Assembly (NCBI GenBank): GCA_018623495.1
Contig: JAAZVP010000006.1
Span: forward strand, 5,353-69,352
Reading direction: 5' to 3'
DNA length: 64,000 nt
Source of the DNA: Halothiobacillus sp.
GTDB taxonomy: Bacteria > Pseudomonadota > Gammaproteobacteria > JAAZVP01
The first letter of the stretch is position 1, and every line of letters begins with the position of its first letter. This document shows positions 7,839-38,135 of the stretch, piece after piece. Position numbers and translations under genes: made by a program. Below the pieces are notes generated by a model. The model worked only from the letters and a program-made list of their open reading frames with translations. It was not told the DNA's origin and did not search any database.

Positions 7839-7888
7839 CTCCTGGCTGCGTTATCATTCACCGTTCGACCCACGACCCGCGAGCATCG

Positions 7889-10027
7889 ATGCCCCCGGAG
7901 ACCGCCACCGACTGCCCGTCCCTCGTCCACGACCTGCGCGAGGCCAGTGATGCCGAGCGCGAAGCCTGCGCCGAGGCCTGCGCCCTGGCCGCCGCGACGG
8001 CGGACGACGACCCCCGCCTGCCCCGCGGCACCGCGGTGGCGCGCATCCTGGTGGACCTGGGGCTCGACGCCGAGGCGGTGACGGCCGCCCTGCTCGCCGA
8101 TCCCCGCCTGCGCGAGACCCCGGAACGCGCCCGGCTGCTGGAACGGCTCGGCGGCACCATCCCGGAGATGGTGGCCGCGGTGGACCGGCTCAACAACTTC
8201 CGCGACTACGACGAGGCCGCGGCGACCCCCGAGCAGACCGAGCGGATGCGCCGCCTGCTGCTGTCGATGACCAGCGACCTGCGGGTGATGCTGATCAAGC
8301 TCGCCTACCGCCTGGAACGCCTGCGCGTGCTGCCGGCCGACGACTTCGAGATCCGCAAGCGGGTGGCACGCGAGACCCTCGACCTCTACGCCCCGCTGGC
8401 CAACCGCCTGGGCGTGGCCCAGCTCAAGTGGGAACTGGAGGACCTGGCCTTTCGCTACCTCGAACCGCAGACCTACCGGCGCATCGCCAGGCTGCTGGAT
8501 GCCAAGCGCGACGAGCGCGAGGCCTTCATCGGCGAGGTGATCGAGTCCCTCGAGACCACCATGGCCGAGGCCGGCATCGACTGCCGGATCAGCGGGCGCT
8601 CCAAGCACATCTTCAGCATCTGGAACAAGATGCGCCGCAAGCAGCTCGACTTCGACCAGCTCTTCGATCTCAGCGCGGTGCGCATCTACGTGGAACACAC
8701 CCGCGAGTGCTACGCCGCGCTGGGCGTGGTCCACAGCCTCTGGACACCGGTCAAGGGCGAGTTCGACGACTACATCGCCCAGCCCAAGCCCAACGGCTAC
8801 CAGTCACTGCACACCGCCGTCTTCGGCCCGGGCGGCAAGGTGGTCGAGATCCAGATCCGCACCCGGGCCATGCACGAGGCGGCCGAGTACGGCATCGCTT
8901 CCCACTGGCGCTACAAGGAAGGCGGGGGCAATGCCGACGCCGGCCTGGAGAACGCCATCGCCGGACTGCGCCGGCTGCTGGAGAACCCCGCCGAGCTGCC
9001 CGGCCACGCGGGCGCGGAGCTCGACCTCGACCGCATCTACGTGTTCACCCCCAGCGGCGAACTGATGGAGCTGCAGCGCGGCGCCACCCCGCTGGACTTC
9101 GCCTACGCCATCCACACCCAGGTGGGCCACGGCTGCCGCGGGGCCAAGGTCAACGGCCGCATCGTGCCGCTCACCCACGAGCTGCACACCGGCGACCGGG
9201 TGGAGATCCTGACGGAGAAGAACGGCGAGCCCCGGCGGAACTGGCTCAACCCGCATTTCGGCTACGTGCACACGGCCCGCGCGCGGACCAAGATCCGCAA
9301 CTGGTTCAACCACGTCGACCGTCGCGACAACATCCGCGAGGGGCGCCAGATCCTCGACCGCGAGCTGCGGCGGCTGGACCTGTCGCGCAAGCGCCTGCCG
9401 GCGATCCGCAGGGAGCTGGGCTGCGAGGACCCCGAGAAGCTCCACGAGGAACTCGGCCGCGGCAACATCGGCGTGGAGCAGATCGCCCGCGCCGCCCAGC
9501 GCCTGCTGGAGCCGGAAACCACCGGGACCGAGCGGCCCGCCCCGCCGACCACCGCGCAAACCCGCCGGCGCCCGGCCGGCGACGACGTGCACATCGAGGG
9601 GGTGGGCAACCTCAAGACGCAGATGGCCGGCTGCTGCAACCCGCTGCCCGGCGACCCCATCATCGGCTACATCACCCGCGGCAAGGGCGTCACCGTCCAC
9701 CGCCAGGACTGTCCCACCGTCCTGGCCATGCCCGAGTCCGAGCAGGCGCGGCTGATCCGCGTCGACTGGAGCGGCGAGGCGGCGACCACCTACCCCGTGG
9801 AGGTCGCCATCGAGGCCTTCGACCGCCAGGGCCTGCTGCGCGACATCACCAACCTGCTCTCGGGGGAAAAGGTCAACCTGGTCGCGGCCAACACCCGGAC
9901 CGAGAAGGCCGACCAGAGCGTGCGGATGACCCTGAAACTCGAGATTCGCGACCTCTCCCAGCTCTCGCGCGTGCTCGACCGCATCGAGCAACTGCCCAAC
10001 GTCGCCGACGCCCGCCGGCTGAAGTGA
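7889..10027 (+). CDS. relA: GTP pyrophosphokinase, RelA-type long RSH (degenerate hydrolase domain, synthetase, TGS, ACT)
   Basis: RVMLIKLAYRLERLR...LYAPLANRLGVAQLKWELEDLAFRYL...GRSKHIFSIWNKMRRK...DLSAVRIYV...YIAQPKPNGYQSLHTAV...EIQIRTRAMHEAAEYGIASHWRYKEG. C-terminal ACT region is present. Confidence 0.9.
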   Translation: MPPETATDCPSLVHDLREASDAEREACAEACALAAATADDDPRLPRGTAVARILVDLGLDAEAVTAALLADPRLRETPERARLLERLGGTIPEMVAAVDRLNNFRDYDEAAATPEQTERMRRLLLSMTSDLRVMLIKLAYRLERLRVLPADDFEIRKRVARETLDLYAPLANRLGVAQLKWELEDLAFRYLEPQTYRRIARLLDAKRDEREAFIGEVIESLETTMAEAGIDCRISGRSKHIFSIWNKMRRKQLDFDQLFDLSAVRIYVEHTRECYAALGVVHSLWTPVKGEFDDYIAQPKPNGYQSLHTAVFGPGGKVVEIQIRTRAMHEAAEYGIASHWRYKEGGGNADAGLENAIAGLRRLLENPAELPGHAGAELDLDRIYVFTPSGELMELQRGATPLDFAYAIHTQVGHGCRGAKVNGRIVPLTHELHTGDRVEILTEKNGEPRRNWLNPHFGYVHTARARTKIRNWFNHVDRRDNIREGRQILDRELRRLDLSRKRLPAIRRELGCEDPEKLHEELGRGNIGVEQIARAAQRLLEPETTGTERPAPPTTAQTRRRPAGDDVHIEGVGNLKTQMAGCCNPLPGDPIIGYITRGKGVTVHRQDCPTVLAMPESEQARLIRVDWSGEAATTYPVEVAIEAFDRQGLLRDITNLLSGEKVNLVAANTRTEKADQSVRMTLKLEIRDLSQLSRVLDRIEQLPNVADARRLK

Positions 10028-12751: not shown

Positions 12752-13564
12752 GTGGCTAGAATCATCGTCGTCACATCCGGCAAGGGTGGCGTGGGCAAGA
12801 CCACGTCCAGCGCCGCCATCTCCACCGGCCTGGCCCAGCGCGGCTACAAGACCGCGGTGGTGGACTTCGACGTCGGCCTGCGGAACCTGGACCTGATCAT
12901 GGGCGTGGAGCGCCGCGTGGTCTACGACTTCGTCAACGTCATCAACGACGAGGCCAAGCTCGGCCAGGCGCTGATCCGCGACAAGCGCGTCGAGAACCTC
13001 TACGTCCTGCCGGCCTCCCAGACCCGTGACAAGGACGCCCTGACCCAGGAGGGCGTGGGCAAGGTCCTCGGCCAGTTCGCCGAGGACGGCTTCGACTACG
13101 TCATCTGCGACTCGCCGGCCGGCATCGAGCGCGGTGCCCAGCTGGCGATGTACTTTGCCGACGAGGCCATCGTGGTGAGCAACCCCGAGGTCTCCTCGGT
13201 ACGCGACTCCGACCGCATGCTGGGCATCCTCTCCAGCAAGTCCCGGCGCGCCGAGCAGGACGACGAGCCGATCCGGGAACACCTGCTGATCACCCGCTAC
13301 CAGCCCGAGCGCGTGGATCTCGGCGAGATGCTCTCGGTGGAGGACGTGCTCGAGATCCTCTCGGTCCCGCTGCTCGGGGTCATCCCGGAGTCCGAGGCGG
13401 TCCTGCAGGCCTCCAACGCCGGCGTCCCGGTGATCATGGAATCCGGCTCCGACGCCGGCCAGGCCTACGACGACGCCGTCGCCCGCCTGCTGGGCGAAGA
13501 ACGGGAACTGCGCTTCGTCGACGCCCGCAAGAAGGGCTTCTTCAGCCGTCTGCTAGGAAAGTGA
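12752..13564 (+). CDS. minD: Septum site-determining ATPase MinD
   Basis: GTG 12752. ARIIVVTSGKGGVGKTTSSAAISTGLAQRG...DFDVGLRNLDLIMG...ICDSPAGIE... C-terminal amphipathic helix KKGFFSRLLGK. Confidence 0.95.
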   Translation: MARIIVVTSGKGGVGKTTSSAAISTGLAQRGYKTAVVDFDVGLRNLDLIMGVERRVVYDFVNVINDEAKLGQALIRDKRVENLYVLPASQTRDKDALTQEGVGKVLGQFAEDGFDYVICDSPAGIERGAQLAMYFADEAIVVSNPEVSSVRDSDRMLGILSSKSRRAEQDDEPIREHLLITRYQPERVDLGEMLSVEDVLEILSVPLLGVIPESEAVLQASNAGVPVIMESGSDAGQAYDDAVARLLGEERELRFVDARKKGFFSRLLGK

Positions 13565-13566
13565 AG

Positions 13567-13827
13567 ATGAGTCTTTTCGATTACTTCCGTTCCTCGCGCA
13601 AGTCCAGCGCCAGCGTCGCCAAGGAGCGGCTCAAGATCATCGTCGCCCACGAGCGCGGGCGCCGCGGCGGCCCGGACTACCTCCCGCAGATGGAGGAGGA
13701 ACTGCTGGCCGTGGTGCGCAAGTACACCAGGGTGGGCGACGACGCCGTGCGCGTGAACCTGGAAAAGGACCAGGGCTTCGACGTGATGGAGGTCAACATC
13801 ACGCTGCCCGAGCGCGACGAGGACTGA
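13567..13827 (+). CDS. minE: Cell division topological specificity factor MinE
   Basis: MSLFDYFRSSRKSSASVAKERLKIIVAHERG...YLPQMEEELLAVVRKY. GTG 13561 is an alternative start. Confidence 0.9.
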   Translation: MSLFDYFRSSRKSSASVAKERLKIIVAHERGRRGGPDYLPQMEEELLAVVRKYTRVGDDAVRVNLEKDQGFDVMEVNITLPERDED

Positions 13828-35543: not shown

Positions 35544-36746
35544 CTACTCCAGCTCGCCCTGGACCTCGCCGGCCCACTCGATGGCGTCGATGTAGCTGCC
35601 CGCCGCGTCGGTGACGCAATCGCCGGTCCGCTCCACCGCCTCCCAGTCGCCCTCCTCGTAGCGGGTCACGCAGTCGAGCAGCTCGCCCATGGGGCCCTTG
35701 CGCTCGAGCAGGGCGTCGCAGAGGTCGGCCTCCAGCGGCAGGCGCTCGACCACCTCCGCCAGGGGCAGATCCATCATCGCGTCCAGCAGCGAGAACAGGC
35801 CCACGGTGAAGCAACGCTCCGGGGAGAGTCCCGCCCGGTGCTCGGCCATGCGCTCGCAGAACCGGGCGCGCACCAGGCAGCGGGTGATCAGCGCCTCGGG
35901 CTTGTCGTCCAGGTGGGCGAGCAGAAGCAGCCGCACCCAGCGGCGGATATTGGTCATCCCCAGCAGGGTCAGCGCGTGGCGGATGGAGTCCACGGGGGTG
36001 TTCAGGCCGTAGAAGGCCGAGTTGACCACCCGCAGCAGGCGGTAGGAGAGCGTCACGTCGGTGGAGACCAGTTCCTCGATGTCCCCGGCGGCGACCTCGG
36101 GCTTCTCGAGCGCGGCCAGCAGGCGCATGATGGTGGCGCGGTTGCTGCTCAGCCGCGTGCCCGGCAGTACCCGCGGGCGGCTGAAGAAGAAGCCCTGGAA
36201 GAGCTCGAAGCCCATGCCCTTGAGCCGCTCGAACTGCTCGGCGGTCTCCACCCGCTCGGCCAGCAGGCGGACCCCGCGCTCGGCGAGCATCGCCACCACG
36301 CCGGGCAACTCGCCCGCCGGGACCTGCTCGATGTCCACCTTGACGATGTCGGCGTAGGGCAGGAGGGCCTGGCTGTCGGGACCGATCACGAAGTCGTCCA
36401 GGGCCAGGGTGTAGCCGCCCTCGCGCAACCCGGCCAACCGGGAAAGGACCGTATCCGTGGCCGGCACGTCCTCGAGGACCTCGAGGACCACCGGCCCGGC
36501 GAACTCGGGCAGCAGCGCCTCGTCGCCGAGGAACTCCGCGGGGATGTTGATGAAGGCCGGCACGTCGCCCACCAGGCTGTCGAGACCGATCTCGACGATG
36601 CCGTTGAGCAGCACCTCGCTGGTGGCCTTGCCGGGGTCGTCCACCCGTGCGCGGTTCTCCGGGCCGGCCCGGTAGAGCAGCTCATAGCCCCGCAGGCGAC
36701 GCTCCGCATCCAGGATCGGCTGGCGGGCGATGAAGATGTCGGGCAT
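35544..36746 (-). CDS. EAL domain plus HDOD domain signalling protein
   Basis: IARQPILDAERRLRGYELLYR...ALDDF...VKVD...LAERVET..QF......G..LFQGFFF (EAL), followed by IMRLLAAL...LVSTDVTLSYRLLRVVNSAFYGL...SIRHALTLLGM (HDOD). Confidence 0.85.
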   Translation of the reverse strand: MPDIFIARQPILDAERRLRGYELLYRAGPENRARVDDPGKATSEVLLNGIVEIGLDSLVGDVPAFINIPAEFLGDEALLPEFAGPVVLEVLEDVPATDTVLSRLAGLREGGYTLALDDFVIGPDSQALLPYADIVKVDIEQVPAGELPGVVAMLAERGVRLLAERVETAEQFERLKGMGFELFQGFFFSRPRVLPGTRLSSNRATIMRLLAALEKPEVAAGDIEELVSTDVTLSYRLLRVVNSAFYGLNTPVDSIRHALTLLGMTNIRRWVRLLLLAHLDDKPEALITRCLVRARFCERMAEHRAGLSPERCFTVGLFSLLDAMMDLPLAEVVERLPLEADLCDALLERKGPMGELLDCVTRYEEGDWEAVERTGDCVTDAAGSYIDAIEWAGEVQGELE

Positions 36747-36879: not shown

Positions 36880-36963
36880 ATGCGCACCCGACTGCCCCTG
36901 CTCCTCGCCCTTGTCGCCACGCTCACCGCCTGCTGCGGCGTGCCGCTCGTGCCCGGGGTCTGA
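36880..36963 (+). CDS. Candidate 27-aa micro-lipoprotein
   Basis: Not in the ORF track because it is too short. MRTRLPLLLALVATLTACCGVPLVPGV has a lipobox LTAC. AGGA lies 9 nt upstream. Convergent with the ParA-partner ORF. Confidence 0.3.
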   Translation: MRTRLPLLLALVATLTACCGVPLVPGV

Positions 36964-36981: not shown

Positions 36982-37182
36982 TCAGTCCGGCCAGACGCGG
37001 CGGGCGGGCATGGGCGCGGGGGACGGCGCTTCCCGGGTCGGGGCCTGGCGGGTGACAACGCTGCCGGCGGCATCGGCGGGTTCGCCGGCGGGCGTCGTTG
37101 CCTTCCGCCCGGTCCGCGGGTCGGGTGGGTCGTTCTTCGCCTGGCGCACGCTCTGCGCCAGCCGGGATGCGATCCGGCTCAT
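36982..37182 (-). CDS. 66-aa proline-rich putative ParA partner protein (McdB-like)
   Basis: The ATG at 37182 overlaps the ParA stop (ATGA). MSRIASRLAQSVRQAKNDPPDPRTGRKATTPAGEPADAAGSVVTRQAPTREAPSPAPMPARRVWPD has 11 Pro and 12 Ala, a basic N-terminus, and W as its only aromatic residue, third from the end. Confidence 0.45.
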   Translation of the reverse strand: MSRIASRLAQSVRQAKNDPPDPRTGRKATTPAGEPADAAGSVVTRQAPTREAPSPAPMPARRVWPD

Positions 37183-37817
37183 GGTCCGGTGATCTCCTCG
37201 ATGATGGCAGCGATCTCGGCCTTCGCGGCATCGCCCTGCCGGCCCAGGCAGAAGACGCTGCGCCCCTCGATGGCCACGTTGCGGTAGACGGCACGCCGGC
37301 GAATGGGGCTGGCGAGCGCCGGGATCTCGAATTCGGCCAGGGCCTCCTGCATGGCGCGCGAGAGCGCACTGCGCGGCTCGAGCTGGTTCACCACCAGGCA
37401 GGCCTCCAGCCCCGGCCGGATCGGGCGGATCTGCTCGATGGCCCGGGCCAGGCGCATGCTCGCCCAGAGGTCCACCGGCGAGGGCAACACGGGGACCAGC
37501 ACCCGGTCGGAGGCCAGCATGGCCTTGTTCGTCCGCTCGGTCTCCAGCGAAGGCGGGCAATCCACCACGATGAAGTCGTAGTCCCGGCGAAAGCGCTGGA
37601 TTTCGCTGGCCAGGTTGTCCCCCAGCGCGATCACCGGGACGGGGAAGGGCCGCCGCTCCGGGGCCATCCCGCTCCATTGCACCGCCGAACCCTGGGGATC
37701 GGCATCCACCACCAGGGTCCGCCCCCGACCGGACAGGCCCGCGGCCAGGTTCATGGCCAGGGTGGTCTTGCCGCTCCCGCCCTTCTGGTTGGCAATCGAG
37801 AATACCGTCGCAGTCAT
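37179..37817 (-). CDS. ParA/MinD-superfamily ATPase (small, type Ib-like)
   Basis: MTATVFSIANQKGGSGKTTLAMNLAAGL (deviant Walker A with signature Lys), VVDADPQGS, DFIVVDCPPSL. 212 aa. Confidence 0.88.
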   Translation of the reverse strand: MTATVFSIANQKGGSGKTTLAMNLAAGLSGRGRTLVVDADPQGSAVQWSGMAPERRPFPVPVIALGDNLASEIQRFRRDYDFIVVDCPPSLETERTNKAMLASDRVLVPVLPSPVDLWASMRLARAIEQIRPIRPGLEACLVVNQLEPRSALSRAMQEALAEFEIPALASPIRRRAVYRNVAIEGRSVFCLGRQGDAAKAEIAAIIEEITGP

Positions 37818-38135
37818 GCTCTCGTCCCGTGAACCCACGATCGGAGCGCGCCGCGGTGGCCGGCGAGGGAACCCCCGTCCCCGACCACCGCTGCCCCTAC
37901 GGGGCCCACGATATCAGGAATCCGCGCCCATGAGCCTCGCCGACACGGTTCGACGGGCAATGCCGATGCACCGGGAAGAACCCATTGACCCATACCGATG
38001 GATTCCGCGGAAAGGGGCGGGAATCACGCAGGACCGACCGCAAGGCCGTGGAGCATTCCCGGCGGGCCCGGCCGGGGACACGCGAGTCGGCGAACGGCGC
38101 TGACCGTCTCGCCGGGCGCACCGGCCCCGCCGTGA

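Follow-up and report, generated by a model that had tools for sequence, protein, structure and literature searches.

An alpha-type McdA-McdB pair, probably encoded away from the carboxysome operon, in an uncultured gammaproteobacterium

What does a ParA-type ATPase position when neither a DNA-binding partner nor a carboxysome gene lies near it? The question is raised by two overlapping minus-strand genes in a window of 64 kb (the whole stretch of DNA that was analysed), one for an ATPase of 212 aa and one for a partner of 66 aa. The first-pass annotation had read the pair as an orphan, McdAB-like Brownian-ratchet module with no visible cargo. Our results suggest, with a probability of roughly 0.86, that it is an alpha-type McdA-McdB system encoded away from the carboxysome operon. 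The features on which the analysis draws are as follows.

37179..37817, stop included (coding 37182..37817), minus strand: mcdA, 212-aa ParA-type ATPase, assigned to alpha-McdA from the ORF, family matches and clade.
37761..37790, minus strand: deviant Walker A box NQKGGSGKTT, residues 10-19, with signature Lys12, read directly in the sequence.
37179..37182, minus strand: ATGA stop/start overlap of the mcdA TGA with the mcdB ATG, read in the sequence and recurring in relatives.
36982..37182, stop included (coding 36985..37182; stop 36982-36984), minus strand: mcdB, 66-aa adaptor, assigned to alpha-McdB from the sequence, alignment A1 and GC3.
37123..37182, minus strand: basic N-terminal helix, McdB residues 1-20, MSRIASRLAQSVRQAKNDPP, from the AlphaFold2 helix and the conserved motif; putative McdA-binding and ATPase-stimulating peptide.
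36985..36999, minus strand: RVWPD motif, McdB residues 62-66, with R, W, P and D invariant in the aligned partners; putative carboxysome-binding motif.

The mcdA ORF runs from an ATG at 37817 to a stop at 37179-37181 on the minus strand, and its protein starts MTATVFSIANQKGGSGKTT. This ATG was preferred to the GTG at 37838 because the relatives have the same start Met. By its published description (PMC8359340), an alpha-McdA is a ParA whose Walker A, A' and B boxes are deviant, and all three are found in the 212-aa ATPase: the A box N10-QKGGSGKTT-19, the A' box D38-x-D40-P-Q42 and the B box D86-C-P-P89. The columns of these boxes are conserved in all aligned ParAs. The protein also matches the Pfam profiles AAA_31, CbiA and MipZ.

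[quoted passage not shown] Basalla et al. 2024 give the consensus as R(V/I)WPD and the lengths as 51-169 aa (PMC11321042). The partner identified here, MSRIASRLAQSVRQAKNDPPDPRTGRKATTPAGEPADAAGSVVTRQAPTREAPSPAPMPARRVWPD, lies directly downstream of mcdA, its 66 aa fall within the published lengths, and the ATGA overlap couples the two genes translationally. It ends in RRVWPD, and mcdB is alone among the 851 stop-to-stop segments of the window in having a [VI]WP[DE] ending. The composition is biased (Ala 18.2%, Pro 16.7%, A+P+K+S+T 53%, Gln 4.5%) and the hydrophobicity is low (GRAVY -0.91); F, Y and H are absent, and the sole aromatic residue is the Trp at position 64 of 66. The net charge is +5, all of it within residues 1-27, and the R7-L8-x4-R13-x2-K16 of this positively charged, conserved N-terminus aligns with the K-L-x4-R-x2-K of the partners in other genomes. 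AlphaFold2 predicts one helix, residues 3-17, and no other secondary structure (pTM 0.27), which gives modest support for disorder because the model is a single-sequence one. The residue matching K7 of the Halothiobacillus neapolitanus McdB is Arg here and Lys in at least 90% of the aligned partners; judged by sequence, this is a conservative change.

The description of the two proteins in the first-pass annotation is borne out by these results. The ParA/MinD-fold ATPase with its NQKGGSGKTT and the stop overlapping the partner as ATGA are read in the sequence. The sequence quoted for the partner was exact, about one of its residues in six is indeed Pro, and the Trp third from its C-terminus is the only aromatic residue. 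The structure prediction that had been proposed as a check returned coil after residue 17.

More than 5,800 homologues of the ATPase are detectable, and many from uncultured proteobacteria are 63-80% identical to it; the closest named relative, that of Thiohalospira halophila DSM 15071, is 76% identical. Homology of McdB was detectable only via synteny, sequence searches returning the query alone. We extracted the sequence following the ATPase gene at each of the 80 loci that a scan with the ATPase found in one genome per species. In 24 relatives, counted as independent loci with a fully readable partner ORF and with 49-76% identity in the ATPase, this sequence is an ORF of 51-114 aa whose product has a basic motif near its N-terminus and ends in WPD; at two further loci (L001 and L002) the contig ends just past the same N-terminal motif. 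At all loci of at least 49% identity for which sequence was available, the partner ORF shares the same 4 nt with the ATPase gene at its stop, except in L007, where it begins 3 nt past the stop. Of the 20 aligned partner loci, 19 show this -3 overlap, and the ATGA recurs likewise in L081, L083 and L088-L090. The partner ORFs share an N-terminal K-L-x-x-S-V-R-x-A-K, a low-complexity middle that varies freely in length and sequence, and an R-(V/I)-W-P-D end. In alignment A1, made of the window McdB and 19 syntenic partners, the columns L8, R62, W64, P65 and D66 are invariant, while K7, R13 and K16 are conserved in at least 90%. Taken over these sequences, the pairing of ATPase and partner is far beyond chance.

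Below 45% ATPase identity the partners are of other kinds, either of the ribbon-helix-helix (RHH) type (L030, L031 and L037) or ParB-like and of about 335-365 aa (L032-L036). In a neighbour-joining tree, which carries no bootstrap values, the ATPases with a WPD partner form one clade that includes the McdAs linked to cso genes, and this clade is sister to DNA-partition ParAs with RHH or ParB-like partners. Residues were taken as clade-specific if conserved in at least 90% of the WPD clade and in at most 15% of other ParAs. The window McdA has 22 of these 22 residues, concentrated at residues 111-120 and 145-206; the signature was derived here as a proxy for the three family-specific regions of alpha-McdA (PMC8359340), and by this proxy and by its clustering with the cso McdAs the ATPase groups with the alpha family. 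Two outcomes had been named in the first-pass annotation as counting against its own reading: a small ORF that is not conserved, and homologous ATPases consistently paired with ParB- or RHH-type proteins. The opposite was found in both cases. The position of the small ORF, its ATGA overlap, basic helix and C-terminal Trp are conserved in relatives of at least 49% identity, and the DNA-binding partners are confined to the sister clades, where identity is at most 44%.

Linkage of the clade to carboxysome genes was searched with tblastn, using CsoS1A, CsoS4A, a RuBisCO large-subunit segment and the CbbQ of a Nitrobacter locus. At 19 loci no more than 4 kb separate the pair from the CsoS4A/B and CsoS1 shell genes and/or CbbQ, the shell set beside it consisting of CsoS4A, CsoS4B and two or three CsoS1. 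These loci include those of Nitrobacter, Nitrosomonas eutropha, Thiomonas delicata, Thiobacillus and Halothiobacillus, in all five of which the pair is inside the cso operon. In L005, which is in the same subclade as the window pair (63% identity), the pair is 1.2 kb upstream of cbbL and three csoS1 copies. L038 has csoS1 upstream and a ParA gene that holds a masked stretch; it was considered as a disrupted mcdA and dismissed, the locus containing 100 masked N bases. The gene structure, the orthology of both proteins, the conservation of the partner termini and the cso linkage at the level of the clade are thus matters of observation.

The window pair itself is elsewhere. Neither the 64-kb window nor the part of the 168-kb source scaffold that was covered, positions 1-80117, contains a cso, RuBisCO or cbbQ gene; the genes seen on that part are housekeeping ones (for example nuo, ftsH, rpoN, mla and lpt). 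The immediate neighbours are EamA, HhH-GPD and EAL+HDOD genes, in agreement with the earlier description. A promoter/terminator scan returned no promoter-like site near the pair and one terminator-like match, which is on the wrong strand inside mcdB. Such a layout has a precedent. MacCready et al. 2021 (PMC8359340) described three genomic arrangements of alpha-mcdAB. In arrangement (iii) the cso operon contains a lone, orphan mcdB, while mcdA is found at a distant locus together with another mcdB; the example that they name is T. halophila DSM 15071 (Fig. 6d/7c). In our data this species (L081) has a 212-aa ATPase, the ATGA overlap and a 65-aa McdB, MSRTASKLTNSVRQAK...MPSRRVWPD, flanked by the genes for coproporphyrinogen oxidase (HemF) and a DUF488 protein, and no cso genes were found within 10 kb of the pair. 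Three long metagenomic contigs (L088-L090) carry the same two-gene cassette, with partners ending in WPD, in other housekeeping contexts. The subclade with this distant locus has a mean identity of 69% and thousands of metagenomic members. In each genome examined the cassette sits in different housekeeping surroundings. The earlier description of the pair as an orphan with no visible cargo therefore stands in that no cso genes are seen nearby, and gives way in that the layout is the already published arrangement (iii).

Since cso genes were not seen in the 80 kb examined, the carboxysome is something that we infer for the host: its genome would carry a cso operon elsewhere, and this operon probably contains a second, 'orphan' mcdB. 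The RelA of the host is about 50% identical to that of named relatives, such as Thioalkalivibrio, Acidihalobacter and Thiohalobacter, which is too distant for its physiology or the possession of carboxysomes to be read from taxonomy. The host is a deep-branching uncultured gammaproteobacterium, which RelA places loosely among the sulfur-oxidising gammaproteobacteria.

Other explanations of the locus differ in what they take the cargo, or the partner, to be. The module may derive from McdAB and position some other cargo, such as a different microcompartment, a storage granule or a protein cluster, in a host without a cso operon. The absence of carboxysome genes from the 80 kb around the locus would fit this, as would the occurrence of the cassette among unrelated housekeeping genes in many genomes and the unusual conservation of the subclade (69%). 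Against these points, R(V/I)WPD is the signature of the carboxysome-associated alpha-McdB, and a distant locus is on record for species that do possess carboxysomes. We consider a different cargo unlikely because McdB-like proteins encoded beside operons for other microcompartments have a terminal Tyr in place of the Trp (PMC8359340) and because L005, from the same subclade, is directly beside cbbL and csoS1. The nature of the partner bears also on whether it is a protein at all, since high-GC DNA yields many spurious ORFs and the 66-aa ORF could be a non-coding shadow frame that leaves the ATPase truly orphan. A word-indexed search of 5.8 billion proteins and an exhaustive phmmer search of 1.84 billion representatives each returned McdB itself as the only match, as might be expected of such a frame. 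Nevertheless, its position, the overlap and both motifs are kept across alpha-, beta- and gammaproteobacterial loci, those of low GC included, and the termini are conserved despite a complete turnover of the middle. The GC3 of mcdB, 0.88 in its own frame vs 0.74 and 0.71 in the other frames, is as expected of a gene in a genome of 72% GC, and an independent gene caller also called the ORF on the source scaffold. A shadow frame is the least credible of the explanations and is effectively refuted by synteny.

A type Ib DNA partition system, in which a ParF-like ATPase and a small centromere-binding protein would segregate the chromosome or an integrated element, is the explanation that the ATPase by itself might bring to mind. 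Its score of 207.5 bits against the NCBIfam equivalog NF041546 'ParA family partition ATPase' exceeds the cutoff of 180. Its nearest solved structures are ParF and the TP228 ParA (E = 4e-24), no beta-McdA structure being among its PDB matches at E <= 1e-5, and its sister clades are paired with RHH or ParB-like proteins. All members of its own clade, however, have a WPD partner. Such systems are recognised by a DNA-binding fold, RHH or HTH, in the partner and by centromere repeats beside the operon, and neither was found. The partner matches no Pfam or NCBIfam domain, and its predicted structure, one N-terminal helix followed by coil, has no ribbon-helix-helix. Between 36700 and 38400 there are no iterated centromere-like repeats, the weak matches of 2-3 copies (69-100% identity) being mostly in coding sequence, and the flanks are core housekeeping genes rather than a mobile element. 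With tblastn no Spo0J/ParB-like or RHH-like match was found in the 64-kb window, and MinD and MinE are at 12752..13558 and 13567..13821. This agrees with the earlier statement that the window has no ParB or RHH protein and that its Min genes are separate. We regard DNA partition as very improbable.

An alpha-McdAB system encoded at a distant locus is accordingly the reading that we retain: in every feature of the published alpha-McdA and alpha-McdB that can be judged from sequence, the pair agrees with the family. The published McdAB mechanism is the most likely one because the pair has the features of alpha-McdAB and lacks those of type Ib systems. Residues 1-20 of the H. neapolitanus McdB are necessary and sufficient for McdA binding, and its N-terminus is a predicted 17-residue helix in which K7 is critical for this binding (Byrne et al., PMC12139897), while its C-terminal Trp is needed for association with carboxysomes (PMC11321042). 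By analogy with that species, from which all biochemistry of the window pair is drawn, ATP-bound McdA dimers would coat the nucleoid non-specifically. The mostly disordered McdB monomer would attach to alpha-carboxysome shells by its C-terminal RVWPD, and its basic helix (residues ~3-17) would dock on the McdA dimer, stimulate ATP hydrolysis and release McdA from the DNA. A carboxysome coated with McdB would thereby make a local zone of McdA depletion and climb the remaining gradient as a Brownian ratchet, spacing the carboxysomes along the nucleoid and securing their inheritance. If the cso operon of the host does contain an mcdB, this operon-embedded orphan and the McdB linked to McdA may form a two-adaptor system with divided labour. 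The Brownian-ratchet module proposed in the first-pass annotation, which named a carboxysome encoded elsewhere as its first candidate cargo, is supported by the conserved partner termini and the clade-level cso linkage. Its term 'McdAB-like' had the family right and understated the relationship, the pair being an orthologue of the published alpha-McdAB with its R(V/I)WPD.

The family, its motifs, the mechanism and the split layout were already published between 2021 and 2025; the discovery value of this locus is small and its practical value lies in annotation. The ATPase is automatically named 'ParA family partition ATPase' or 'chromosome partitioning protein' and the adaptor is invisible to sequence searches, which is why loci like this one keep resembling orphan ParAs. 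A ParA of this clade, an ORF overlapping its stop and a terminal R(V/I)WPD together make a reliable rule for recognising them, and the same rule marks the host as a probable alpha-carboxysome autotroph.

The logic of the pair is shared with beta-McdAB of Synechococcus elongatus PCC 7942, which also consists of a nucleoid-bound ParA-type ATPase and a carboxysome-binding adaptor, and beta-McdB has the same charged N-terminus and invariant C-terminal Trp. Published beta-McdBs differ in being 132-394 aa long, with a coiled coil, Gln-rich stretches, hexamers and no WPD end. An assignment to the beta type was rejected, because the window partner is 66 aa long, contains 4.5% Gln and is predicted to be helical no further than residue 17. 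The ParF-ParG system of TP228 resembles the window pair in its small ParA (~206-212 aa) that has no N-terminal DNA-binding extension, and ParF is the closest solved structure to the window McdA. ParG, also a small protein, stimulates the ATPase through a flexible basic tail at its N-terminus and binds centromere repeats through a C-terminal ribbon-helix-helix. Unlike ParG, the window partner has no RHH fold and its locus no repeats, and the cargo would be a protein organelle, not DNA.

Closest in layout is the alpha-McdAB of T. halophila, itself only a distant relative of the window host. Its McdA, also of 212 aa, is 76% identical, its McdB has 65 aa against 66 here, and the two adaptors agree at both ends, with MSRxASxLxxSVRQAK at the N-terminus and RRVWPD at the C-terminus. 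Both pairs have the ATGA overlap and are surrounded by housekeeping genes away from cso genes, although HemF and DUF488 flank the pair of T. halophila and EamA and EAL-HDOD that of the window. The window McdB has Arg7 for Lys7 and a middle richer in Pro and Arg.

The experimentally characterised system is the alpha-McdAB of H. neapolitanus, which is of the same family as the window pair. In Halothiobacillus the pair is part of the cso operon, with shell genes on one side and cbbQ on the other, whereas no cso gene was seen in the 80 kb examined around the window pair. The window McdA is 56% identical to the McdA of a Halothiobacillus MAG (L012), whose McdB is longer, at 102 aa. The Halothiobacillus McdB has K7/K13/K17 where the window McdB has R7/R13/K16. 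The H. neapolitanus and window systems share a deviant Walker A with its signature Lys and a disordered partner with a terminal RVWPD, and the predicted helix of the window McdB (residues 3-17) mirrors the basic N-terminal helix, of about 17 residues, of the H. neapolitanus McdB.

The housekeeping neighbourhood of the mcdA-mcdB cassette differs in every genome examined (Thiohalospira halophila DSM 15071, locus L083, the metagenomic contigs L088, L089 and L090, and the window). Loci L009 and L010, two further loci of McdA relatives, have 79% nucleotide identity, limited to mcdA and the start of mcdB, while in L009 the pair lies within a cso operon and in L010 outside one. The mcdA-mcdB unit evidently moves between sites as one block. 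McdA of the window's subclade is strikingly conserved, with 76% identity to the T. halophila protein and a subclade mean of 69%. This can be set against the RelA of the host:

Window ~7884-10022 (converted from L086 1816-3954): RelA gene

The identity of RelA to its counterparts in named organisms goes no higher than ~50%, and its best 120 matches include no T. halophila sequence. The difference between the two proteins suggests either strong constraint or horizontal spread of the cassette.

Locus L005, from a complete 1.5-Mb gammaproteobacterial MAG chromosome, has another layout. Here mcdAB immediately precedes cbbL and a tandem run of three csoS1 genes (L005 4001-8162) instead of lying downstream of the shell genes, and McdB has 114 aa with long K/A/P-rich repeats. 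This layout is seemingly absent from the three published arrangements (MacCready et al. 2021, PMC8359340).

Two features lie close to mcdB in the window:

36880-36963, + strand: possible 27-aa micro-lipoprotein ORF (MRTRLPLLLALVATLTAC followed by CGVPLVPGV; L-T-A-C lipobox)
35544-36746, - strand: EAL + HDOD protein, 400 aa, immediately downstream of mcdB

The possible micro-lipoprotein ORF is convergent to mcdB, ending 19 nt from its stop, and was left uncalled by the gene caller on the source scaffold. The EAL + HDOD protein is likely a c-di-GMP phosphodiesterase or signalling protein. PAS-GGDEF-EAL genes are also found within 10 kb of mcdAB in T. halophila and L088, and the proximity of EAL-type genes in these three cases is probably a coincidence.

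The alpha-McdA (window 37182-37817) scores above the cutoff of NF041546, an NCBIfam equivalog entitled ‘ParA family partition ATPase’, and pipelines therefore label it a DNA-partition protein. No Pfam or NCBIfam model matched the window McdB (36985-37182), and neither a word-indexed search of 5.8 billion proteins nor phmmer against 1.84 billion representatives returned a homologue besides the query. The result is an annotation gap, in which McdA is named as a DNA-partition protein and McdB is without a family model.

At McdB position 7, at least 90% of the sequences in the alignment of 20 partners have Lys. The natural K-to-R variant at this position of the window McdB, as read from the alignment, could have a tuned affinity for McdA. 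K7 of Halothiobacillus neapolitanus McdB is reported to be critical for binding to McdA, and for partitioning rather than for positioning alone (PMC12139897). The aligned codon 7 of the window McdB (37162-37164) encodes Arg.
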